Below are positions 1,309 to 38,975 of a stretch of DNA of 64,000 bases, one piece after another. The position numbers and the translations under genes were made by a program. A model generated the notes under the pieces. It did no database searches. It was given only the letters and a program-made list of their open reading frames with translations, and was not told the DNA's origin. Location: assembly GCA_965222715.1 (NCBI GenBank), contig OZ244961.1, positions 204,609 to 268,608 on the forward strand, in the 5' to 3' direction. Every line of letters begins with the position of its first letter. The first letter of the stretch is position 1. Source of the stretch: Minisyncoccota bacterium (lineage in GTDB: Bacteria; Patescibacteriota; Minisyncoccia; Phycocordibacterales; JABMNX01).

Positions 1309-3543
1309 TTTAGATGACTTCCGAGTAGTTTTCTTAGCAGTCTTCTTCGCCACTTTTTTAGGAGTACGTTTTCGTGTTTTCTTTTCTTCAGCAAGAATTT
1401 CTAGTGCTCGAGGTAATTCAATAGTGTATACATCATCTGTTTTAAGTGAGCGAAAATCACCATCATGCACAATAAAGGGACCAAATCGTCCAATGCCCGC
1501 GGTAATCTCTTCACCTGTTTCAGGATGTTTTCCAAGAACACGGGGTACGCTTAAATACTTTGCAGCATCTTCCACTGTCACTTCATCAATATCTTTATCT
1601 TTTGGGATACTTGCACGTCGTGGCTTTTCTTTCTTTCGTTCTCCTTTTTGGGGAGTTGCACCAAGTTGTACATAGGGACCAAACCGTCCTGTGAGTAAAT
1701 AAATATCTTCACCGCTTTCTGGGTGCTTTCCAATTGGTTTATCTGGTTCAATAACTTTACCTTCAATTGTGCGAGCACCATCACACTCTGGAAATCGTGC
1801 GCAGCTTAAGAACTTACCACCACGACCAAGTTTGATGACCATCTTACTGTCACATTTGGGGCAGGGGAATTCATCAGGTGCGTCACCAAGTGTAGTAATT
1901 TTTTCAAGATCTTCTTTTGCCTCAACATCTTTTCGAAATGGAGTATAAAAGTCTTGGAGTGTTTTCGTATACTCACGTTTTCCTTCTGCAATTTCATCAA
2001 GTTCATTTTCCATTTCTGCAGTAAACGAGTCACTGATGTAGTTTTCAAAATTCTTTTCCAAAAATGAGCTCACCACATCTCCTGTATCAGTTGGAAAGAG
2101 CGTTCGTCCCTCCTTATAGACATATTCACGATCTTGAAGCGTCTTCATAATAGATGCGTATGTTGACGGCCGACCAATACCTCGCTTTTCAAGTTCTTTA
2201 ATAAGTCCTGCTTCAGTGTAGCGCTGTGGTGGTTGCGTTTGTTTTGCTTCTGAGTGTATATCAGTAAGAGTAAGTACTTCTCCTTCTTCAACCTTAGGAA
2301 GCTCAGTATCTTCACCGCGAGCCCGTGGGTCTGCTTTGAGCCACCCATCAAAGACAACTCGAGAACCATTTGCGGTAAAAGCAGGTATCTCAGCATCTGT
2401 AGTAGTGGTTATTTTTGTACGAAGTACACGAGCATCTGCCATTTGGGACGCAATCGTTCTCTCCCAAATGAGGGTATATAATTTTTTCTGATCATCTGTG
2501 GTGCCGGCACGTTCTTTAGATATGTTTGATGGTCGTATTGCTTCGTGAGCTTCTTGCGCTGATTTACTTGATGTTTTATATGCACGGGTGGTGCTGTATT
2601 CTTCTCCATACTTTTTCTTTACTAACGTCGTAATTTGTCCAAGCGCTTGGTTACTGAGGTTGGTACTATCCGTACGCATATAGGTAATATGTCCAGCCTC
2701 ATACAATTTCTGTGCTACACCCATGGTGCGAGAAGGTGCAAAGCCAAGTCGAGTGCTGGCAACTTGCTGAAGTGTTGAGGTAATAAATGGTGGACGTGGT
2801 GCACGTTTCACTTCAGTTTCCTTTACCATATCGACTGTCCATGATGCTTTTTTACCTTCCGTGACAATACGTTTCGTTTCAACTTCTTCTTTAGGTTCAA
2901 CTGAACAGGTAATGGTAAACGACTCTTTCTTTTGTGTCGCCACATTAGCAGTAATAACCCAAAAATCTTCTGGTATAAATTCACGTATCTCTCGCTCTCG
3001 CTCCATAAGGATACGTAGTGCGGGAGATTGTACTCGTCCTGCTGAGAGTCCATAGCGAACTTTTTTCCAAATAAGCCCTGAGAGATCATAGCCAACCAGT
3101 CTATCAAGTACTCGCCGAGCTTCCTGAGCTTGTTTGAGATGCTCATCAATATCTCGTGGGTGAGCAACAGCTTCCTGTACTGCTTCTTTGGTGATTTCAT
3201 TAAACACCACACGTTTTGGTGTTGTAAGTTGAAGAGCTTCTTTAAGGTGCCAGGCAATTGCCTCACCTTCTCGGTCGGGGTCAGTTGCAAGAAGTACCTC
3301 GTCTGCTTCATTCGCAAGTTCTTTTAACTCTTCAAGAACATCTTCTTTGCCGCGTGATACTTCATAGTTAGGAATAAACCCCCCTTTGATATCGATAGCA
3401 TTTTTATTACTTTTAGGGAGATCGCGCACATGTCCGACTGATGCGCGCACCACAAATTCACCTTTCTGTGTGTGAGGAAGGTCGTCGAGATATTTTGTTA
3501 TTGTTTTTGCTTTCGCAGGTGATTCAACAATTAATAATTTCAT
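1306..3543 (-). CDS. topA: DNA topoisomerase I
   Basis: 745 aa ORF; TOPRIM/Topo IA motifs, C-terminal zinc-ribbon repeats and Lys-rich tail. Confidence 0.95.
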   Translation of the reverse strand: MKLLIVESPAKAKTITKYLDDLPHTQKGEFVVRASVGHVRDLPKSNKNAIDIKGGFIPNYEVSRGKEDVLEELKELANEADEVLLATDPDREGEAIAWHLKEALQLTTPKRVVFNEITKEAVQEAVAHPRDIDEHLKQAQEARRVLDRLVGYDLSGLIWKKVRYGLSAGRVQSPALRILMEREREIREFIPEDFWVITANVATQKKESFTITCSVEPKEEVETKRIVTEGKKASWTVDMVKETEVKRAPRPPFITSTLQQVASTRLGFAPSRTMGVAQKLYEAGHITYMRTDSTNLSNQALGQITTLVKKKYGEEYSTTRAYKTSSKSAQEAHEAIRPSNISKERAGTTDDQKKLYTLIWERTIASQMADARVLRTKITTTTDAEIPAFTANGSRVVFDGWLKADPRARGEDTELPKVEEGEVLTLTDIHSEAKQTQPPQRYTEAGLIKELEKRGIGRPSTYASIMKTLQDREYVYKEGRTLFPTDTGDVVSSFLEKNFENYISDSFTAEMENELDEIAEGKREYTKTLQDFYTPFRKDVEAKEDLEKITTLGDAPDEFPCPKCDSKMVIKLGRGGKFLSCARFPECDGARTIEGKVIEPDKPIGKHPESGEDIYLLTGRFGPYVQLGATPQKGERKKEKPRRASIPKDKDIDEVTVEDAAKYLSVPRVLGKHPETGEEITAGIGRFGPFIVHDGDFRSLKTDDVYTIELPRALEILAEEKKTRKRTPKKVAKKTAKKTTRKSSK

Positions 3544-3606: not shown

Positions 3607-4464
3607 TTAATCAGCACAACGAAATTCTCCCATTCGCTCAATAATAATACCCTTTAACTCCATTGCTGAAAGTAGTACGTGCGCTTCTGTCACTGGTAGC
3701 TCAAGTGCATCAATGAGTGTATCTCTATGCATGGGGTGACTAAGTAGCTCTACTACTTTTTTCTCAGCATCGCTTAATGTTTCCAAATGCTGCATGTGGG
3801 GAGTGACGTGTATGCCGAGTGCTTCAAGAATATCATCACTTGAAGTAATAGGTGTTGCACCATTCTTTATTAACATGTGTGGCCCGTATGAAAGTCGTGA
3901 AAACACTGTGTTTGGCACGGTGAGTACATCCCGATTGTATTCCATTGCGAGTCGAGCGGTTATGAGTGTTCCTGATTTTTCCCCTGCTTCAATAACAAGT
4001 GTTGCGTGTGAGAGCCCCGCCATAATTCTATTTCGCTGCGGGAAACTATATGGTGTTGCGCGGAATGTTGGTTCAAATTCTGAAAGTAACCCACCGCCAG
4101 AGGAGAGTATGTCACGCGCAAGTGATTGATTGGTGCGTGGGTAGAGTACCGAGTCATGTAATCCTGATCCAGGGACGGCTACCGTATGAAGCCCTGCAGC
4201 AAGGGCCGCTCTGTGTGCGAGTGCGTCCATGCCAAGAGCAAGTCCTGAGACAATAGCAATGGGGTAACCGCGAAGGCCGTGAATAAACGTCTCACACACA
4301 TCTTTCCCGTACGGTGAGTGACGTCGTGAACCAACCACACACAATAGTATTGTATTTTCCTGTGGAAGAGATCCTCGTAGGTAAAGTGTTTTAGGCGGGT
4401 CAGGTATTTCGTTAAGAAGTTGCGGGAACTCATCTGGAGTAAGTTGTCTCACTGTGTGCTCCAT
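3607..4464 (-). CDS. dprA: DNA processing protein DprA (Smf)
   Basis: 285 aa; Rossmann-like DprA core (GxAxGxDxxAH), conserved dprA-topA gene order. Confidence 0.85.
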   Translation of the reverse strand: MEHTVRQLTPDEFPQLLNEIPDPPKTLYLRGSLPQENTILLCVVGSRRHSPYGKDVCETFIHGLRGYPIAIVSGLALGMDALAHRAALAAGLHTVAVPGSGLHDSVLYPRTNQSLARDILSSGGGLLSEFEPTFRATPYSFPQRNRIMAGLSHATLVIEAGEKSGTLITARLAMEYNRDVLTVPNTVFSRLSYGPHMLIKNGATPITSSDDILEALGIHVTPHMQHLETLSDAEKKVVELLSHPMHRDTLIDALELPVTEAHVLLSAMELKGIIIERMGEFRCAD

Positions 4465-4511
4465 AGTACTATGTAGTGTATCATTGTTGCTGAAACACTG
4501 ACCAATACCTT

Positions 4512-5783
4512 ATGTTAGATATTCAGTTTATTCGAGAGAACAAGAAACTCATTGAAGAGGGCGCACGTAAAAAGCGCATGGATGTTGACATTGATCGACT
4601 CATTACCATTGATGATAAACGTCGAGAACTCCTTAGCTCTATTGAAAAGAAACGTGCACAACAAAACAGTGCAAACGACAGTATCACAAATACAGAAGAT
4701 CAGACTGAAAAGGATCGGCTTATCGCAGACATGAAAGGCATAAAAGAGGCGATCCAAAAAGAAGAAGAAGTATTAAAAGGAGTGATGGAAGAGTGGCAAG
4801 CTCTCATGCTTCAGGTACCTAACATTCCTGACATGTCAGTACCCGAGGGGGAAGATGACGCTGACAACAAAGAAATTAAAGTTTGGGGGGAGAAGCCACA
4901 ATTTTCTTTCACTCCAAAGAGTCACGTTGAGATAATGACAGAACTTGATATTGCTGACTTTGAGCGGGGTACAAAAGTACACGGTTTTCGTGGATATTTT
5001 TTAAAAAAGGATGGCGCACTACTTTCGTATGCTATTTGGAATTACGCACACGAGTTCTTTCTTAAAAAAGGGTTTGTGCCACTTCTTGGCCCAACAATTG
5101 TGCGCAAGAATAACCTCTACGGCACAGGACACTTACCAAATGATGCTGATGATGTGTACCACACACAAGATGACGATTATCTTATTGGGACCTCAGAGAT
5201 TTCTACTATGGGGTATCACTCAGATGAAATTTTAGATAAAAATGCATTACCGCTAAAGTACCTTGCCTTTTCTCCGTGTTATAGAAGGGAAGCGGGAAGT
5301 CATGGAAAAGACACCAAAGGACTCATTCGAGTACATGAATTCTATAAAGTTGAGCAAGTAATTTTGTGTGAAGCAAGTCACGAGGAGTCAGTGAAGTGGC
5401 ATGAGTGGATTAATCGAAATACTGAAGAGTTCATTGAATCACTCGGTATTCCGTATCATACAGTACTAAACTGCGGTGGTGATATTGGGCAAGGACAAGT
5501 AAAGAAATATGATATTGAGCTGTGGGTACCACTTGAGGAGAAGTACCGAGAGATTAGCTCAGCATCATACTTCCATGATTTCCAGACACGCCGTTTTAAT
5601 ACCAAGTATCGTGACGAAGAAGGCAAAGCTCGTTACGCACACTCACTAAACTGCACTGCTATACCAACCCCACGAGTACTCGTTTCATTGGTTGAAAACT
5701 TTCAACAAGAAGATGGGTCTGTAAAGATTCCCGAAGTATTAAGGCCGTACCTTGGTGGTAAAGAAGTAATCACAAAGAAGTAA
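4512..5783 (+). CDS. serS: seryl-tRNA synthetase
   Basis: 423 aa; N-terminal coiled coil + class II aaRS core motifs. Confidence 0.95.
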   Translation: MLDIQFIRENKKLIEEGARKKRMDVDIDRLITIDDKRRELLSSIEKKRAQQNSANDSITNTEDQTEKDRLIADMKGIKEAIQKEEEVLKGVMEEWQALMLQVPNIPDMSVPEGEDDADNKEIKVWGEKPQFSFTPKSHVEIMTELDIADFERGTKVHGFRGYFLKKDGALLSYAIWNYAHEFFLKKGFVPLLGPTIVRKNNLYGTGHLPNDADDVYHTQDDDYLIGTSEISTMGYHSDEILDKNALPLKYLAFSPCYRREAGSHGKDTKGLIRVHEFYKVEQVILCEASHEESVKWHEWINRNTEEFIESLGIPYHTVLNCGGDIGQGQVKKYDIELWVPLEEKYREISSASYFHDFQTRRFNTKYRDEEGKARYAHSLNCTAIPTPRVLVSLVENFQQEDGSVKIPEVLRPYLGGKEVITKK

Positions 5784-13487: not shown

Positions 13488-13991
13488 TTGATGGAAACCT
13501 CTAGGGAAACAGAGTATCTTGTAATAGTACCCATTGAGAGTATGCATGTTGGTGATGTGTATCCCAAAGGGGAATTATTACCACTACACTGCACCATCAT
13601 GCCCTGGTTTACTTTAGGTACACATTTAGACTATAACAAGCTTGATGGTATACTCACCAAACTTTCTCAAGAGGTAAAAGGTGGAGTCATTGAACTTGTT
13701 TCCAAGTACAAAGATTTTTTTGGACCAGAAAATGATGTTGAGGTACATGTGTTAGAAAAAAATGATACAGTCACACACCTCCACAACCAACTACTTACAC
13801 TACTACATGAGGCACACGTTACACCTATTTCACCACAGTGGTTAGGCAAGGGTTATCGTCCTCATATTACTGATGTGTCTTCGCAAATGCAGACAGGGGA
13901 TTCAGTGAAAGTTCATAGTCTTTGCATATTAGAACATGCAGGAGATAGGGTGAAACGAGTCCTAAAAGAGTATACATTTGGGTCTAACTAA
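13488..13991 (+). CDS. 2H phosphoesterase superfamily protein (LigT-like 2'-5' RNA ligase/cyclic phosphodiesterase)
   Basis: two H-x-T/S-x motifs (LHCTIMPW and PHITDV) at the characteristic spacing. Confidence 0.55.
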   Translation: MMETSRETEYLVIVPIESMHVGDVYPKGELLPLHCTIMPWFTLGTHLDYNKLDGILTKLSQEVKGGVIELVSKYKDFFGPENDVEVHVLEKNDTVTHLHNQLLTLLHEAHVTPISPQWLGKGYRPHITDVSSQMQTGDSVKVHSLCILEHAGDRVKRVLKEYTFGSN

Positions 13992-14033
13992 GTTACATAT
14001 AACTATTCATTTATACATTTATACCCATTCTAT

Positions 14034-14206
14034 CCACAGGTTTTTGCACATTTTGATTTGCAGGACTTTTTACTAGTGTATAAAATTAAAGGACTGAAGC
14101 GTTGACGGTTTTCCTCTCCGGAGAAAAACCTCGCAGTATGCAAGACGACTGCTTGAACGCTTCGGGCAAGCAAACGCACCGCTCACGCGGTGCGTTTGCG
14201 TTTTTA
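14034..14206 (+). promoter_or_regulatory. structured 5' leader copy A: conserved box CCACAGGTTTTTGCACATTT + P1/P2/P3 multi-stem + GGGCAAGC + terminator hairpin (14171-14198) + T5
   Basis: paralogous copy at 15474-15640 with compensatory changes in every stem. Confidence 0.5.
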
Positions 14207-14228
14207 GTTTTGATACAATAGTTAAAAA

Positions 14229-14534
14229 ATGAAAACGTATACTATTTCTTCTGAGCTATGGGTATATCCAACTGAAAAAGCCGCGTGGCACTTTGTTACT
14301 GTTGGCAAAAGAGAATCTGCCCACATTAAAAAAGATCAGCAGAAAAATCAAAAAGGAGTGCGTCGTGGTTTTGGGTCAATTCCAGTAAAAGTAACTATTG
14401 GCAAAACCACATGGACAACATCTATATTTCCTAACGCAAAAGATGGTACATATCTTCTGCCAGTAAAAAGCTCGGTGAGAAAAGCAGAGGGACTTTTTGA
14501 AGGAGATATGGTACAAGCATCTCTATTAATTTAG
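14229..14534 (+). CDS. DUF1905 domain protein
   Basis: 101 aa; DUF1905 (YdeI-like) pattern. Confidence 0.55.
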   Translation: MKTYTISSELWVYPTEKAAWHFVTVGKRESAHIKKDQQKNQKGVRRGFGSIPVKVTIGKTTWTTSIFPNAKDGTYLLPVKSSVRKAEGLFEGDMVQASLLI

Positions 14535-14594
14535 AAATTTATAATCTAGAGTTTGGTATACTGAAACGGTTGTAATAACTTTATATCTCATTAT

Positions 14595-15359
14595 ATGAAA
14601 CACATTCTTACAGTAGTAATCTTACTCATTATTCTTGTTGGTGGATACTATCTCCTCATGCATGATGCTGAGAAAATAAGTAGAAGCACAAACCCCGTTA
14701 CTGTGACTCCAGTATCACACGCAACCTTCGCACTTTCGTGGGCAGGTGAAACACTGTACGCAGATCCTATTGGTGGGAAAGAGGTATTCAGTGATCTTGC
14801 TGCACCATCTCTTATATTTGTGACTGATGTTCATGGAGACCACTTAAATGTTGAAACACTCGAAGCGGTGGTCACCGAGGATACCACTATCCTTGCGCCG
14901 CAAGCGGTTGTTGATATGTTCACTGAAGGACTGCTTGGAAAGACAGTAGTACTTGCAAACGGAGAGACAACAGAGCAAAAAGGGTTCTCAATTGAAGCTA
15001 TCCCAATGTATAACTTACCAGATCAGGGGGTTGAAATTCGTCATGAAAAAGGGCGAGGAAATGGATACCTTATTGAGCGTGATGGCACTCGTGTCTACAT
15101 TGCTGGGGACACTGCTGATATTCCCGAAATGCGCATGCTTACTGACATTGATATTGCATTTATTCCAATGAATATGCCATACACCATGGATATTGAACGA
15201 GCAGCGAGCGGTGTTCTTGCTTTTAAACCCGCACAAGTCTACCCATATCACTACCGTGGGCCCGACGGACTTGCTGATGTTGATCGATTCAAAGAATTGG
15301 TAGAAGAGGGGGATGAAAACATTGAAGTTATATTAGGAAACTGGTATCCAGCTGAGTAA
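14595..15359 (+). CDS. MBL-fold metallo-hydrolase, membrane-anchored
   Basis: HxHxDH-type motif (VHGDHLN), N-terminal TM. Confidence 0.7.
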   Translation: MKHILTVVILLIILVGGYYLLMHDAEKISRSTNPVTVTPVSHATFALSWAGETLYADPIGGKEVFSDLAAPSLIFVTDVHGDHLNVETLEAVVTEDTTILAPQAVVDMFTEGLLGKTVVLANGETTEQKGFSIEAIPMYNLPDQGVEIRHEKGRGNGYLIERDGTRVYIAGDTADIPEMRMLTDIDIAFIPMNMPYTMDIERAASGVLAFKPAQVYPYHYRGPDGLADVDRFKELVEEGDENIEVILGNWYPAE

Positions 15360-15397
15360 GCATAGGTACTATAACTAAAGCTGCAGAAGCTTGAAAT

Positions 15398-15423
15398 AAA
15401 CGCCAAGAGTACTCTTGGCGTTT
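15398..15423. terminator. terminator hairpin AAACGCCAAGAGTACTCTTGGCGTTT (family copy 2)
   Basis: perfect palindrome with A/T flanks. Confidence 0.6.
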
Positions 15424-15473
15424 ATTTTTGCTTTTTAAAGCCACAATGCGGCTTTTGTTTATACACAAGGTGT

Positions 15474-15640
15474 CCACAGGTTTTTGCACATTTCGAGTTT
15501 GGTAAAAGTAAAACACTTATATATACTTTTATGTACTAAGGCGTTGAGATTGATTTCTTCGGAAACCAATTGACGTAGTGAAAACTACACACATCGCCTT
15601 GGGCAAACCACACGCACCGCTCACGCGGTGCGTGTGTGCG
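15474..15640 (+). promoter_or_regulatory. structured 5' leader copy B (same architecture as 14034-14206; terminal hairpin 15609-15636)
   Basis: shares conserved box CCACAGGTTTTTGCACATTT, P1 AAGGCG/CGCCTT, P2 UUCG-loop hairpin, P3 GTAGT-GAAA-ACTAC, GGGCAAAC, hairpin CACACGCACCGC-TCAC-GCGGTGCGTGTG. Confidence 0.5.
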
Positions 15641-15718
15641 TCTACGCTACTTTAAAAATATACTGTTTATTACTTACTAGTAGTTTTATACTCTTGTGTG
15701 GCATACTTATACATAACT

Positions 15719-16132
15719 ATGCATCATAAAATTGTAGTCGGTATTGTTATTGTAGGAGCAGTTATTGCTATTGACGCATTCTTCTGGGGAGGCATTCCAT
15801 CGGTCTTTGAAAGTGGTAATCGTGCCTCTGCACCATTACCAACAACACCCACAGAAACTGGGGAAGACAATGCTAACCCACGAAATGCAGCACAAACACT
15901 TACAGCGGTGCGCGACTATGTTTCTACACATACTGGAGTAGATGAAAATGAAGTTATTGTACCAAGTCTTTTTGAGAAAGAATGGCCAAATGGTTGTCTT
16001 GGTCTTGAGCAAACTGGAGAGTTTTGTACTCAAGTGATTACACCAGGTTTTGAAGTTACTGCAGAAGTTGGGGGAGAGACTATTGTATATCGCACGAATG
16101 CGGACGGCTCAGTCATTCGAGAAGCGCAATAA
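15719..16132 (+). CDS. membrane-anchored hypothetical protein
   Basis: N-terminal TM, Cys-containing soluble domain; ATG 15719 preferred over GTG 15698. Confidence 0.45.
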   Translation: MHHKIVVGIVIVGAVIAIDAFFWGGIPSVFESGNRASAPLPTTPTETGEDNANPRNAAQTLTAVRDYVSTHTGVDENEVIVPSLFEKEWPNGCLGLEQTGEFCTQVITPGFEVTAEVGGETIVYRTNADGSVIREAQ

Positions 16133-16940: not shown

Positions 16941-16982
16941 ATACACTTTACACTGGTAAGTGACCATGTACACTAGTGAGTA

Positions 16983-17342
16983 ATGTTTGGAAGTACTACA
17001 CAAGCCCGAGCACAGAATCACTCCATGTTACGTATGGTATGTTTTGTGATTGCGCTTTTCCTTGTTTTTTCTTTTGTTATTCACGCAATTGACATTGATC
17101 ACTACCACCCTGAAGCTATTTTTGGCGTTGGTCTTGAATCGTTTTTTCATGCTGACAATCGTAAGTGGGTATTTATACTCCTTATGCTGTGCGTCACGTT
17201 GTCCTTGTGGTGTATTAAAAAATACATACACACCCACGTGTTGGAAGAAACAACACAAGAAGATATCGTCCCTACGTCTGTATTTTTCTATTTTGATATT
17301 TCTACCGAGAAAGGAATTATTCAAAATATACTATATGGCTAA
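16983..17342 (+). CDS. hypothetical membrane protein
   Basis: ORF with 2-3 TM; no homology recognised. Confidence 0.35.
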   Translation: MFGSTTQARAQNHSMLRMVCFVIALFLVFSFVIHAIDIDHYHPEAIFGVGLESFFHADNRKWVFILLMLCVTLSLWCIKKYIHTHVLEETTQEDIVPTSVFFYFDISTEKGIIQNILYG

Positions 17343-35083: not shown

Positions 35084-35102
35084 TATACCCCCTAGGGGTA
35101 TA
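35084..35102. promoter_or_regulatory. CsoR-type operator: GC-tract palindrome TATACCCCCTAGGGGTATA overlapping -10 (TATAAT 35099-35104)
   Basis: inverted repeat read from sequence, 12 nt upstream of csoR ATG; matches known CsoR/RcnR operator style (ATACCC-N-GGGTAT). Confidence 0.55.
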
Positions 35103-35113
35103 ATGTCCTGTGT

Positions 35114-35383
35114 ATGAAAGCAGAAACGAAAAAGCAGGTACAAAATCGTCTTCGACGTGTCGAGGGTCAGGTGCGTGGACTCCAAAAAATGGTCGATGAG
35201 GAACAGTATTGCGTTGATATTATTACACAGTCGTCCGCAGTACGGAGCGCACTCTCGGCAGTTGAGGATTTGATGCTTGAAAATCACTTGTCCGAACACG
35301 TCATTCACCAGATGAAGCAGGGACAGGAGAAGAAAGCGATCAGTGAAATTATCAACATATTTAATAAAGCTAAGAAAAAATAA
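35114..35383 (+). CDS. csoR: CsoR/RcnR-family metal-sensing transcriptional repressor
   Basis: 89 aa; RLRRVEGQVRGLQKMVDEEQYCVDIITQ...H..H/C pattern of DUF156 family. Confidence 0.8.
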   Translation: MKAETKKQVQNRLRRVEGQVRGLQKMVDEEQYCVDIITQSSAVRSALSAVEDLMLENHLSEHVIHQMKQGQEKKAISEIINIFNKAKKK

Positions 35384-35384
35384 T

Positions 35385-35819
35385 ATGGAAAACAAAAACC
35401 AAACAATCATTATCGGTCTCCTCGCCCTTATCGTCGGGCTTCTTCTCGGCTACTTCTTCGGTGCCAATAACATGCCACACCGAGGATTCTTCTCAAATGA
35501 GTCAATGTACGAGGAAATGGAAGAGCACATGGGAGGGTATGAGTACAATGATGAAATCGTAAGCGGCGACGGCGAATTAATGCATATGATGGACGAAATG
35601 ATGCTTATTGGGCGTGGTCAGACTGGAGACGCATATGAAGAAGCGTGGCTCCGTGGTATGGTCGTGCATCACATAGGAGCGATCAGAATGTCAGAGCAAC
35701 TCTTGAAAGAAACGGATCGTCCAGAACTTATCGAACTTGCAAACAACATCATTGAAAGTCAGTCGAGAGAGGTTGAACAGATGAAAGGTTGGCTTAATTC
35801 ATGGTTCAATGAAAACTAA
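35385..35819 (+). CDS. DUF305 domain protein (single repeat), membrane-anchored
   Basis: MVVHHIGAIRM motif; TM at N-terminus. Confidence 0.65.
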   Translation: MENKNQTIIIGLLALIVGLLLGYFFGANNMPHRGFFSNESMYEEMEEHMGGYEYNDEIVSGDGELMHMMDEMMLIGRGQTGDAYEEAWLRGMVVHHIGAIRMSEQLLKETDRPELIELANNIIESQSREVEQMKGWLNSWFNEN

Positions 35820-35820
35820 T

Positions 35821-36306
35821 ATGAAAAGCAATCTTATTATCGGAATACTGGTTGTCGCAGTGATCGCTGTTGTCGGCGTTATGGCAACACAAGCGTTCCC
35901 TAAGCAAAGCACAATTACTGAAGTTCCAACTAACGGACTTTTGGCAACCATATATAAATCGCCAAGCTGTGGTTGTTGCGGGCAATACGCTACGTATTTA
36001 GAGAAAAAGGGATACGGCGTTGATGTTGAGGGAGTTGCGAATATGCAATCGATAAAAGAACAGTACGACATACCGTATGAGCTTGAGAGCTGTCACACGA
36101 TGGAGATTGACGGGTATGTAGTCGAGGGGCATATTCCGGAGGAAGCAGTGCAGAAGCTTCTTGCTGAACGACCAGATATCAAAGGCATCGGTATGGCAGG
36201 CATGCCATCAGGTTCTCCAGGAATGCCGGGTCCTAAAACATCAGACTTCGTGATTTACGAGATCACTCATAACGGCACAAAGGGCGACGTCTTTATGACT
36301 ATTTAA
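35821..36306 (+). CDS. DUF411 domain metal-binding protein (CxCC motif)
   Basis: SPSCGCCGQY motif, TM anchor; alternative start 35809. Confidence 0.6.
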   Translation: MKSNLIIGILVVAVIAVVGVMATQAFPKQSTITEVPTNGLLATIYKSPSCGCCGQYATYLEKKGYGVDVEGVANMQSIKEQYDIPYELESCHTMEIDGYVVEGHIPEEAVQKLLAERPDIKGIGMAGMPSGSPGMPGPKTSDFVIYEITHNGTKGDVFMTI

Positions 36307-36324
36307 CTAACGATTAGTGGATAT

Positions 36325-36708
36325 ATGAACTACGGACACAAAAAACAAGTCTCGCTATCGTTTGACGAAGCAGTGGAAAAAGTTCGAGTGGAACTCGCTA
36401 AAGAGGGATTCGGTGTTTTAACCGAAATTGACGTTGCAACAACACTTAAAAAGAAGCTCGATGTTGAGTACGACAATTACGTTATTCTCGGTGCATGTAA
36501 TCCGCCGTTTGCTTATGAGGCACTCAAAGCTGAGAAAGACATCGGTCTTCTATTGCCGTGCAATGTCATTGTGTATGAAAACAATGGTAACGTGTTCGTT
36601 TCCGCAATTCTTCCGACAGTAGCAATGAACATGGTGGAGAATGAAACACTCGGTACTATTGCCAAAGAGGTCGAGAGTAAATTAATTAAGGTCGTTAAGA
36701 ACATATAA
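36325..36708 (+). CDS. DUF302 domain protein
   Basis: GFGVLTEIDV...ILGACNPPFAYEAL...GLLLPCNVIVYE signature. Confidence 0.65.
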   Translation: MNYGHKKQVSLSFDEAVEKVRVELAKEGFGVLTEIDVATTLKKKLDVEYDNYVILGACNPPFAYEALKAEKDIGLLLPCNVIVYENNGNVFVSAILPTVAMNMVENETLGTIAKEVESKLIKVVKNI

Positions 36709-36720
36709 TCGAAAGTATTT

Positions 36721-36987
36721 ATGAACAACTTACACATTATAAAAACAGGAAATGCGTTCGGTATCCTTTCAGTCATCTTCTTCCTGTTCTGCATGGCATG
36801 GGGATTCTTGCTCACTGATCCAGTGCTTAAGGAGCTTCATGTAAATATTCTGCGCATTGCATATCCGGGCTTCACCATGAGTCTTATTGGGGCAGTCATT
36901 GGTCTGGTCGAAACTTTTATTTACGGATGGATATTTGGTGCCCTCTTTGCGTGGGTGTGCCGAAAAGTCTGTATCTCTAACGTATAG
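36721..36987 (+). CDS. small hypothetical membrane protein
   Basis: 88 aa, 2 TM. Confidence 0.35.
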   Translation: MNNLHIIKTGNAFGILSVIFFLFCMAWGFLLTDPVLKELHVNILRIAYPGFTMSLIGAVIGLVETFIYGWIFGALFAWVCRKVCISNV

Positions 36988-36998
36988 CAAATGCAAGA

Positions 36999-38975
36999 AT
37001 GTCACACGAACACCATCACAATCATGCAGACCACGGGGCACATGGAATGAGTCACGGTTCTGCCGCACAGTACCTAAAGCGATTCTGGATTGTTACGTTC
37101 CTTCTCATTCCGCTTGTACTGGTGCATCCAAAAGTATCAGAGATACTCGGTATTTCCTTTGGGCTGAACAAGTGGATACAATTCGCAATTGCAACAATTA
37201 TATTCGGCTTTGCACTTGTATTCTTTCAGCATGCATGGCACGAAATAAAGTCGCGCAAGTATGGCATGATGACGCTTGTCTCGCTTGCCGTAGGAAGCGG
37301 ATATTTGTTTTCTGTTGCTTCAACTTTCATTTCTGCTGTAGACGTAGAGTTTTATCTTGAAATCTCAACACTTGTTTGGGTACTGTTGTTCGGACACTAT
37401 TTGGAAGCAAAATCCAGTTCGGCAGCTGGAGATGCGCTGTCTGAGGTCGCAAAGCTTCTACCGAAGAAAGCGCACAAGCTAGAAAATGGTACTGAGACTG
37501 ATGTTGATATCAACGAGCTTCAAGAGGGCGATGTTGTTGTTGTGAAGCCGGGAGAAAAGGTTCCGGCAGACGGCACAATTACTAAAGGATTTGCGAATGT
37601 AAATGAGTCACATATAAGCGGCGAGTCAAAACCAATTGAGAAAAAAGAAGGTATGAATGTGGTCGCTGGAGCAATTTGTCTTGATGGATCACTCACGGTC
37701 AAGCTCTCCCGTGTTGGCGAACACTCAACAGTCGGTCAGATACAAAAGCTTATAGCTCAAGCTGGGCAGACTAAACCTCGATCTCAAAGGATTGCGGACA
37801 AAGCATCTGCTGTACTCACCTTTGTTGCAGGTATTACCGCGCTTGGGACGCTTCTCGTTTGGACACTGATTATTGGACAGCCGTTTGTGTTTGCGGTCAC
37901 GCTCGCTATCACGGTACTTGTTATTGCCTGTCCGCATGCGCTCGGGCTTGCCATTCCAACCGTGACAACCATAACCACCTCGCTTGCGGTAAGGAACGGT
38001 TTTTTCATCAAAGACCTCTCAAAGATTGAGATCATACGCAAAGCAAACTACGTGGTGTTTGATAAGACAGGAACACTTACTAAAGGAGAGTTTGGCGTTA
38101 CTAACATCGTATCTATTAAGGAACAAGACAAGGACAGAATCATTTCTATTGCCGCGTCTCTCGAACAGCACTCCTCGCATATCATTGGGCAATCCATACT
38201 GAAGTATGCGCGTGAGCAAAAGATTCAGGTCTCTGAAATCAGCGACTTTCAGAACATTGCTGGTCAGGGTGTGAAGGCAAAGGTAGGAAGTCAGGAATAT
38301 TTTGCTGGCAATGAGCGTTTGATCCGAAGTTTGAACCTTACATTCAACACACCCACGGATACCGACGGCACACTCGTCTTTGTCGCTGATAAAAAACGAG
38401 TACTCGGTTATCTCGTTCTCTCCGACGCAGTCAAAGAGTCTTCAAAGATAGCTGTCCAGAAACTGCACGACATGGGTGTAAAGGTCGCTATGCTTACTGG
38501 TGATAATGAACAAGTTGCACGATCGGTATCGGAAGAGCTGGGCATTGATACCTATTTTGCAAATGTCATGCCGGAGGATAAATATACGCACATAAAGAAA
38601 CTCCAGGAAGATGGCAGTGTGGTACTTATGGTCGGCGATGGAGTGAACGACGCCCCTGCACTTACCCAAGCTGATGCAGGGGTGGCAATTGGTGCCGGTA
38701 CTGATGTCGCGGTTGAAGCGGGAGACGTAGTGCTCACCGATAATGATCCGCAGGACATCGTGCGACTCATTACACTATCGAAGAAGGTATATACAAAAAT
38801 GATTCAAAATCTTGTCTGGGCGCTAGGGTACAACATTGTGGCAATTCCGGCAGCAGCAGGAGTATTTGCAGTCTGGGGATTCTTCCTACGTCCTGAAATT
38901 GGTGCGCTTGTGATGAGTCTTTCGACAGTAATCGTGGTAGTGAACGCTTTAACGCTCAAGCGAATTAGCTTGTAA
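36999..38975 (+). CDS. copB: copper-translocating P1B-type ATPase, CopB-like (His-rich N-terminus, CPH motif)
   Basis: MSHEHHHNHADHGAHGMSHG N-terminus; CPH in TM6, DKTGTLT, GDGVNDAPAL. Confidence 0.9.
   Translation: MSHEHHHNHADHGAHGMSHGSAAQYLKRFWIVTFLLIPLVLVHPKVSEILGISFGLNKWIQFAIATIIFGFALVFFQHAWHEIKSRKYGMMTLVSLAVGSGYLFSVASTFISAVDVEFYLEISTLVWVLLFGHYLEAKSSSAAGDALSEVAKLLPKKAHKLENGTETDVDINELQEGDVVVVKPGEKVPADGTITKGFANVNESHISGESKPIEKKEGMNVVAGAICLDGSLTVKLSRVGEHSTVGQIQKLIAQAGQTKPRSQRIADKASAVLTFVAGITALGTLLVWTLIIGQPFVFAVTLAITVLVIACPHALGLAIPTVTTITTSLAVRNGFFIKDLSKIEIIRKANYVVFDKTGTLTKGEFGVTNIVSIKEQDKDRIISIAASLEQHSSHIIGQSILKYAREQKIQVSEISDFQNIAGQGVKAKVGSQEYFAGNERLIRSLNLTFNTPTDTDGTLVFVADKKRVLGYLVLSDAVKESSKIAVQKLHDMGVKVAMLTGDNEQVARSVSEELGIDTYFANVMPEDKYTHIKKLQEDGSVVLMVGDGVNDAPALTQADAGVAIGAGTDVAVEAGDVVLTDNDPQDIVRLITLSKKVYTKMIQNLVWALGYNIVAIPAAAGVFAVWGFFLRPEIGALVMSLSTVIVVVNALTLKRISL

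Follow-up and report, generated by a model that had tools for sequence, protein, structure and literature searches.

A structured RNA of about 110 nt, absent from Rfam, in two copies in a Patescibacteria genome and in related genomes

Two look-alike intergenic regions lie in the window (the whole stretch of DNA that was analysed, 64,000 nt long), and they raise the question of whether their shared blocks mark a DNA site or a functional RNA, and, if an RNA, whether it serves as the leader of the following genes or is a product in its own right. We observed that both regions are copies of a real structured RNA of about 110 nt that is absent from Rfam. The initial annotation had proposed a shared modular architecture for the two regions, and this was borne out by exact block matches, by pairwise alignment and by the folds. 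The 20-nt box CCACAGGTTTTTGCACATTT, said to be identical in both copies, indeed has two exact matches in the window, at 14034-14053 and 15474-15493 (chance expectation 0), and no further copy was found in the window with up to 3 mismatches tolerated. The 22-nt core of the terminal hairpin, ACGCACCGCTCACGCGGTGCGT, likewise has two exact matches in the window (14174-14195 and 15612-15633), as had been claimed. When the two copies were compared pairwise, conserved blocks alternated with diverged stretches; the upstream box and the hairpin core were identical, and GGGCAA was present in both. The parts of the two RNAs are as follows, with ends predicted from the folds and the alignment.

14092-14206, + strand: copy A RNA (predicted ends)
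14094-14103 with 14156-14165, + strand: copy A P1, 10 pairs
14107-14116 with 14121-14130, + strand: copy A P2
14133-14137 with 14148-14152, + strand: copy A P3, whose loop AUGCAAGACG includes a GNRA-like GCAA
14166-14169, + strand: copy A linker GCAA
14170-14206, + strand: copy A terminal hairpin, 13 pairs with loop UCAC, then GTTTTTA; intrinsic-terminator form
15534-15644, + strand: copy B RNA (predicted ends)
15536-15545 with 15593-15602, + strand: copy B P1
15548-15557 with 15562-15571, + strand: copy B P2, loop UUCG
15575-15579 with 15584-15588, + strand: copy B P3, loop GAAA
15603-15607, + strand: copy B linker GCAAA
15608-15620 with 15625-15637, + strand: copy B terminal hairpin, loop UCAC, without a U-tract

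Copies A and B fold as a P1 helix enclosing P2 and P3, followed by the terminal hairpin, with z-scores near -6 relative to shuffled sequence. The earlier description of a P1-enclosed multi-stem domain and a hairpin was accurate, and the same minimum-free-energy architecture was obtained for all five members of the family described below when each was folded independently. Some details needed correction. P1 is a real helix, but AACGCTTC lies at 14156-14163 and not at 14155-14162, and the helix is longer (10 pairs). GGGCAA, annotated as a conserved single strand, is conserved, but its first two G residues pair at the base of P1 (invariant C-G and U.G). The P2 hairpin forms, but both copies have a single non-canonical pair in it (C.A in A, A.C in B). 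The T-run reported after the copy A hairpin was seen as GTTTTTA, and of the two window copies only A has a U-tract.

The family has at least five members in four related Patescibacteria genomes: window copies A and B and the loci L048, L032 and L155. The genome collection, with one genome per species, was scanned for a pattern of GGGCAA plus the GCACCGC hairpin; among the matches listed, L048 (Paceibacterota) and L032 (Kaiserbacteria) were real and the others were mostly chance matches in GC-rich genomes. A covariance model trained on copy A, L048 and L032 gave 58.7 bits to copy B and 65 bits to L155, both of which were outside the training set. L155 was found by running this model over contigs that carry DUF305 homologues. 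No further copy was detected by the model in the window, none at the loci of MBL hydrolase homologues (L120-L125), and none beyond L155 at the more distant DUF305 homologue loci (L145-L160); the model scan left out L272. Additional members probably exist among the scanned genomes. The pattern scan of metagenomes returned 19 matches, all of which came from one unrelated conserved GC-rich locus (L126-L144), and of the 111 matches in viral contigs none had the full hairpin. BLAST against plasmids and phages gave no match. The metagenome locus has a terminator, GGGCAAAAAAAAGCACCGC...GCGGTGC, after the end of an ORF, unrelated to the RNA, and it illustrates that a single abundant lineage is able to supply all the matches of one pattern scan.

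The five sequences were aligned by hand to the structure, with N padding to hold the columns. In this alignment 92.1% of 189 cells were standard pairs, as compared to 37-43% when the partners were slid by 1-3 columns. Changes on both sides were seen in 16 of the 40 pairs, a count that belongs to a hand-fitted alignment of n=5, and none of 500 shuffles attained the values of the alignment, whether for pairing, for covariation score or for compensatory counts. In P1, 98% of the cells paired and five columns were compensatory; the helix starts from an invariant C-G and U.G, of which the U.G is formed with the first G residues of GGGCAA. P3 was 96% paired, also with five compensatory columns, and P2 was 83% paired, with one position non-canonical in four of the five members. 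Of the doubly changed pairs, 13 belong to P1, P2 and P3. In the terminal hairpin the base covaries, and the upper seven pairs are almost the same in all members. The other invariant or near-invariant elements are the 5' CU, GUUGA (the top of P1 and the start of J1/2), GGGCAA-R-C and GCRCCGC/GCGGUGC. J2/3 and J3/1 vary in length and sequence among the members and are poorly conserved between copies A and B. Every P3 loop includes a sequence of the GNRA type (GAAA, GCAA, auGCAAgacg, auGUAAuagg and auGUAAcagg), and this loop, together with the irregularity in P2, suggests a loop-helix tertiary contact in the modelled fold.

The strand could also be assigned. The complementary strands of both regions fold equally well. 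In the pair-table tally, 10 wobble cells fit the + strand only and 2 fit the - strand only, and the UUCG and GAAA tetraloops of copy B are on the + strand, as are the promoter-like sites and the U-tracts. We therefore place the RNA on the + strand on the basis of the wobble pairs and the UUCG and GNRA loops; an RNA on the minus strand was ruled out by the wobble pairs and tetraloops. The same features bear on a reading in which the locus is a DNA-level cassette, where the repeats upstream and the palindrome GCACCGC-N4-GCGGTGC bind protein, the hairpin is a terminator or insulator, and the RNA structure has no function. The 7-nt half-sites are almost invariant around a 4-nt centre that varies (UCAC vs GCAA), as would be seen in a palindromic operator; the repeats are clearly a signal at the DNA level, and both strands fold equally well. 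However, the pairing of P1-P3 is kept through the 13 doubly changed pairs, which a DNA site would not need, and the strand-specific wobble pairs and the UUCG and GNRA loops indicate an RNA. The next promoter also lies at a variable distance from the palindrome (about 10 to about 60 nt), and the GC-rich stem may be invariant merely for terminator stability. The strand-specific covariation makes a purely DNA-level reading unlikely, and we regard the cassette as very improbable. The earlier view that the regions are more than a DNA site and encode a functional RNA is upheld: homologues with covariation exist and the helices are kept.

We also compared the element with known families. Over the whole window, Rfam 15 at gathering thresholds reported two tRNAs only, and a permissive scan (E up to 10) of 13950-15750 gave only noise, including an NrrF match that was sub-threshold, covered the terminator part and was on the wrong strand. 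No Rfam match was found on the element at the homologous loci L155, L032 and L048. ARAGORN found neither a tRNA-like nor a tmRNA gene. The inability of the initial annotation to place the element in a known family was thus confirmed by a covariance-model check against Rfam 15 at both copies and the homologous loci, and among the outcomes it had named as grounds for dropping the idea, an Rfam match and a lack of covarying homologues did not come true. J1/2 reads UUGAYGA in three members and differs in copies A and B. The hammerhead ribozyme (core CUGANGA ... GAAA ... NUH) was considered and rejected, there being no GAA after P2 and no Rfam match. Literature searches found nothing on a copper riboswitch or on DUF305 together with a riboswitch, and the titles and abstracts listed for Patescibacteria or Parcubacteria RNA motifs do not describe the element. 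It is a new family within a known class, the bacterial small structured RNAs.

Upstream of the RNA, both copies have an array of direct repeats and a promoter-like site.

14011-14050, + strand: copy A array of direct TTATnCACA-like repeats, a putative transcription-factor site upstream of the -35
14011-14017, + strand: extra TTATACA in copy A
14019-14027, + strand: copy A repeat TTATACCCA
14030-14038, + strand: copy A repeat CTATCCACA
14042-14050, + strand: copy A repeat TTTTGCACA
14057-14086, + strand: copy A promoter-like site TTTGCA-18-TAAAAT, predicted start about 14092-14093
15459-15490, + strand: copy B repeat array, made up of the next three
15459-15467, + strand: copy B repeat TTATACACA
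15470-15478, + strand: copy B repeat GTGTCCACA
15482-15490, + strand: copy B repeat, again TTTTGCACA
15499-15527, + strand: copy B promoter-like site TTGGTA-17-TATACT, predicted start about 15534

The 20-nt box is mostly contained in the copy A repeat array. Three direct repeats with a spacing of 11-12 nt and at a fixed distance to the promoter are present in all five members, in the order TTATACACA-like repeat, 2-3 nt, TATCCACA plus GG, TTTATGCACA-like repeat, 6-7 nt, and then the -35. This is continued, again in all five, by a TTTGCA-like -35, 17-18 nt, a TAnnnT -10, about 8-10 nt, and the CU that opens P1. L155 has TTTGCA-17-TATAAT (10 of 12 matches in the scan), an equivalent site was called by the scan in L032, as were the sites of copies A and B, and TTTGTG-18-TATCCT was read by eye in L048. 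These sites would make up a sigma-70-like promoter with a predicted start 1-3 nt before P1. The TTGCAC within the box had been taken as a -35, but this is probably not the case: what had been called a variable spacer contains the promoter-like site, at matching positions in copies A and B. A sigma-54 promoter, and CsoR, CopY and Fur boxes, were looked for at the RNA loci and rejected by eye.

A direct-repeat spacing of 11-12 nt is what is used by factors that bind direct repeats on one face of the helix, and the triple repeat is probably the binding site of a transcription factor. We considered whether this factor might be DnaA, with the repeats as a cluster of DnaA boxes that would form a DnaA-controlled promoter or a DnaA-titrating or origin-related site. 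Each repeat matches the DnaA-box consensus TTATNCACA at 7-9 of 9 positions, and the head-to-tail arrangement with 11-12 nt spacing is conserved in all five members. On the other hand, the window shows no enrichment of DnaA-box-like 9-mers (15 vs 18 expected), the turn in GC skew is near 4 kb and not at 14-15 kb, and the site is always at a fixed distance from the RNA promoter. Judged on these sequence features, the DnaA reading is unlikely.

The skew turn is a separate feature of the window. At about 4000-4600 the GC skew passes from negative to positive and the gene orientation changes from - to + between dprA-like and serS-like genes; TCCACAGG is present at 4359-4366 on the - strand within this region, which could be the replication origin region.

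The genes that surround the two copies in the window, and their transcription signals, are as follows.

Upstream of copy A: a DM13 protein and a 2H-phosphoesterase-like protein
After copy A: DUF1905 and an MBL-fold hydrolase
14211-14219, + strand: TGATACAAT, an extended -10-like element 4 nt past copy A and 9 nt before the DUF1905 ATG (14229)
15393-15428, + strand: terminator-like hairpin with a 16-pair stem and a T-run, after the MBL hydrolase gene
After copy B: membrane protein, cupin, TspO, HYH membrane protein, DUF305, pilin-like protein and DUF3105
16947-16985, + strand: predicted HYH gene promoter TTTACA-16-TACACT-8-ATG (16983)
35085-38975: csoR unit, with csoR (35114-35383, PF02583), a second DUF305, DUF411, DUF302, DUF5676 and a heavy-metal-type P-type ATPase

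HYH denotes a membrane protein with the motif HxxHYHxE...GVGLE...DRKW; it had no Pfam match, and a word-based homologue search returned the query itself only. In L155, L032 and L048 the gene next to the RNA is HYH, followed by DUF305 or a cupredoxin. The MBL and DUF305 proteins have their best homologues in Patescibacteria (Kaiserbacteria, Paceibacterota and similar). In relatives, the MBL homologues are often fused to cupredoxin or plastocyanin-like domains, and in one case the homologue is preceded on its contig by csoR and a P-type ATPase (L122 3697-6753); these contexts appear to link the MBL hydrolase family to copper handling. DUF305 in relatives often has a CsoR or Fur-family gene in front of it (Fur-family in L272). 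From these neighbourhoods, the common theme is probably metal homeostasis, and the metal probably copper. The csoR unit of the window has its own operator, a perfect palindrome ATACCCCCTAGGGGTAT at 35085-35101 that overlaps a TATAAT and precedes csoR. The csoR gene was skipped by a simple longest-ORF pass because a longer antisense ORF overlaps it. No operator of this type (ATACCCC...GGGGTAT) was found at either RNA locus, the site at 35085-35101 being the sole one in the window, and a CsoR-regulated copper operon at the RNA loci was ruled out as the operator is missing there.

We further observed that in all three relatives a gene for a DUF5679 zinc-ribbon protein (61 residues) ends 30-40 nt before the RNA repeat array. 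By tblastn, no copy of this gene was found in the 64-kb window. Its product could be a partner or regulator of the RNA, or the arrangement could be plain synteny.

L048, 2576-2761: DUF5679 gene
L032, 2956-3141, - strand: DUF5679 gene
L155, 1823-2008: DUF5679 gene

All five copies are co-oriented with the following gene and near it (the gap is 22 nt for copy A), and the question is whether the RNA is the leader of that gene. The initial annotation had suggested a riboswitch or attenuator. In such a reading the junction would bind a ligand or a protein and alter the passage of the polymerase through the hairpin, as a riboswitch or a protein-dependent attenuator or antiterminator; the neighbouring genes would suggest a metal ion or a stress-related metabolite as ligand. 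We consider this possible, if somewhat doubtful. The aptamer-like arrangement of P1 around P2 and P3, followed by a hairpin, did hold up, but the folds contained no helix that competes with the hairpin, and there was no conserved leader ORF. The position of the element speaks for a leader, since all five lie directly upstream of, and in the orientation of, genes of one theme (DUF1905-MBL; membrane protein-cupin-TspO-HYH-DUF305; HYH-DUF305 or HYH-cupredoxin), and relatives that have no RNA carry a CsoR or Fur-family gene before DUF305 (L272 lay outside the model scan). So does the geometry: the peripheral stems vary, P3 always has a GNRA loop, and the non-canonical pair of P2 is conserved. Further, the hairpin and U-tract of copy A stand right before an ORF, and copy B, having no U-tract, would be a leader by default.

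The expression platform of a riboswitch has a structure that cannot form together with the ligand-bound aptamer, and no such structure was seen in the folds of the five members. P1 and the hairpin, with the linker between them, both form in every minimum-free-energy fold. When the nascent transcripts of the five members were folded up to the hairpin loop, no conserved competing helix (antiterminator) was found; the same junction domain formed and the 5' arm of the hairpin was in no helix. A short match in copy A, GCGUU/AACGC, was noticed by eye and is not conserved. Moreover, the upper 7 GC-rich pairs with UUUU would terminate even with the base of the stem open. J2/3 and J3/1, which differ in length and sequence between members, also count against a leader of this kind, and their poor conservation between the paralogues disfavours a small-ligand pocket. 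An attenuator with a leader peptide was rejected, as no ORF is conserved among the five members: in copy A a frame of 27 codons begins at the AUG of the P3 loop, but in L048 (where it is the only in-frame AUG) and in L032 this AUG has a UAA directly after it, and in copy B and L155 it has no counterpart.

The signals beyond the RNA also bear on this. By scan, a hairpin and U-tract in the form of an intrinsic terminator are present in copy A, L155, L032 and L048, and not in copy B. In L155, L032 and L048, HYH has its own predicted promoter of a leaderless type, which stands against a leader there. In L155 this is TATAAT-8-ATG with TTGACA 15 nt upstream of the -10 (2282-2322), in L032 TATAAT-7-ATG (about 2673-2715, - strand), and in L048 TATACT-8-ATG, called by the scan with TTGAAG and TG (2973-3013). 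HYH in the window is three genes from copy B and has no RNA adjacent to it, and its -10 is still 8 nt before the ATG. A -10 located 7-8 nt before the ATG in four genomes suggests that the HYH mRNA is leaderless in these Patescibacteria, and HYH-DUF305 looks like an autonomous, leaderless unit. Given the -10 hexamer of HYH in L155, L032 and L048, the RNA of these genomes appears to be transcribed separately from HYH. The element TGATACAAT is possibly a separate promoter for the genes after copy A; no comparable promoter was seen after copy B. The terminator-like hairpin at 15393-15428 lies between the copy A unit and the copy B promoter, and as a strong terminator it would isolate the copy B unit. 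A second hairpin, AAAGCCACAATGCGGCTTT, follows the MBL gene at 15437-15455 and ends 3 nt before the copy B repeat array. Since copy B has no U-tract, its predicted transcript probably continues into the membrane-protein, cupin and TspO genes as their 5' leader.

Together, these observations have led us to favour, tentatively and with slightly less than even confidence, a factor-controlled, stand-alone small RNA next to genes of a metal-homeostasis type. Transcription would start at the sigma-70-type promoter directly downstream of the three TTATnCACA-like repeats, to which an activating transcription factor is presumed to bind. The transcript would begin 1-3 nt before P1 and fold into a three-way junction of P1, P2 and P3, in which P2 carries the conserved non-canonical pair and P3 is capped by the GNRA-type loop. 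The conserved linker GGGCAARC(C)A and the GC-rich hairpin would follow, with the U-tract terminating transcription in four of the five members. The RNA itself would be the product, a regulated small RNA of a metal/stress neighbourhood (DUF305, the HYH-motif membrane protein, cupin, TspO and the cupredoxin-associated MBL hydrolase), and it would most likely bind a protein or an mRNA via the conserved linker and hairpin. The gene of a stand-alone small RNA is expected to have a promoter and a terminator to itself, and both were found here by prediction (the terminator in four of five). The two copies share the upstream box, the hairpin core and GGGCAA and diverge elsewhere, which resembles sibling small RNAs with one regulator.

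Several findings count against a stand-alone small RNA. All five copies share the orientation of the following genes and lie close to them, copy B has no U-tract, and the family as found comprises at least five sequences from four related genomes, with promoters and transcript ends that are predicted. A GNRA loop and a conserved helix defect on a three-way junction are seen more typically in domains that bind a ligand or a protein than in small RNAs that act by base pairing. The search for linker targets in the window, using TGGYTTGCCC (the complement of GGGCAARCCA), found 5 sites vs 5.2 expected, which is chance, and the duplex energies of the RNA with the starts of neighbouring genes were inconsistent. 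A more specific idea is that the junction domain is a sensor of a metal ion (e.g. copper) or of a stress ligand, in place of the CsoR/Fur-type regulators that related Patescibacteria have before DUF305. It could act on read-through (copy B) or as a ligand-loaded small RNA. We regard this idea as quite improbable; if true, the sensor would be the first riboswitch class specific to the Patescibacteria radiation, and possibly the first for that ligand.

Among known systems, the stand-alone small RNA reading has its nearest likeness in sibling small RNAs such as OmrA/OmrB, which are activated by OmpR, and PrrF1/PrrF2, which like RyhB are controlled by Fur. As in OmrA/OmrB and PrrF1/PrrF2, neighbouring paralogous genes each have a factor site, a promoter and a terminator (here predicted), short functional blocks are identical and the rest has diverged, and the genes concerned have a shared stress or metal theme. 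Unlike these and RyhB, to which it has no sequence or Rfam similarity, the element is from Patescibacteria. Unlike OmrA/OmrB and PrrF, it is built around a three-way junction, with a likely tertiary contact, and not as a simple stem-loop, and no target or seed was found for it. With the aptamers of the purine and c-di-GMP-I riboswitches it shares a P1 that encloses two side-by-side helices, a GNRA loop on one helix and an irregularity on the other with a possible loop-receptor contact, a terminator-like hairpin downstream, and the orientation of the following genes. It differs from them in having no Rfam match, junction nucleotides that are only partly conserved, a terminator that does not overlap P1, no antiterminator, and downstream promoters in three genomes. 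SreA/SreB and EutX/Rli55 are small RNAs derived from riboswitches or leaders that act in trans. As with these, a structured 5' element ends at a terminator and would be released as a short RNA, or may start a longer mRNA (copy B); this is an analogy of layout only, as no ligand, aptamer class or partner was identified here.

The practical value of the finding is limited for now, given the narrow known distribution (at least five members in four genomes) and transcripts that are predicted from sequence. How Patescibacteria regulate their genes has hardly been explored, and descriptions of non-coding RNAs specific to them are few. Here the element offers a well-supported fold, a promoter with a distinctive triple repeat, two paralogues in one genome and a metal-type neighbourhood. 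The triple direct repeat could be used as bait to pull down the transcription factor. If the element is a ligand sensor, it would represent a new riboswitch class; should it prove to be a small RNA, it would give access to post-transcriptional control in these reduced genomes.
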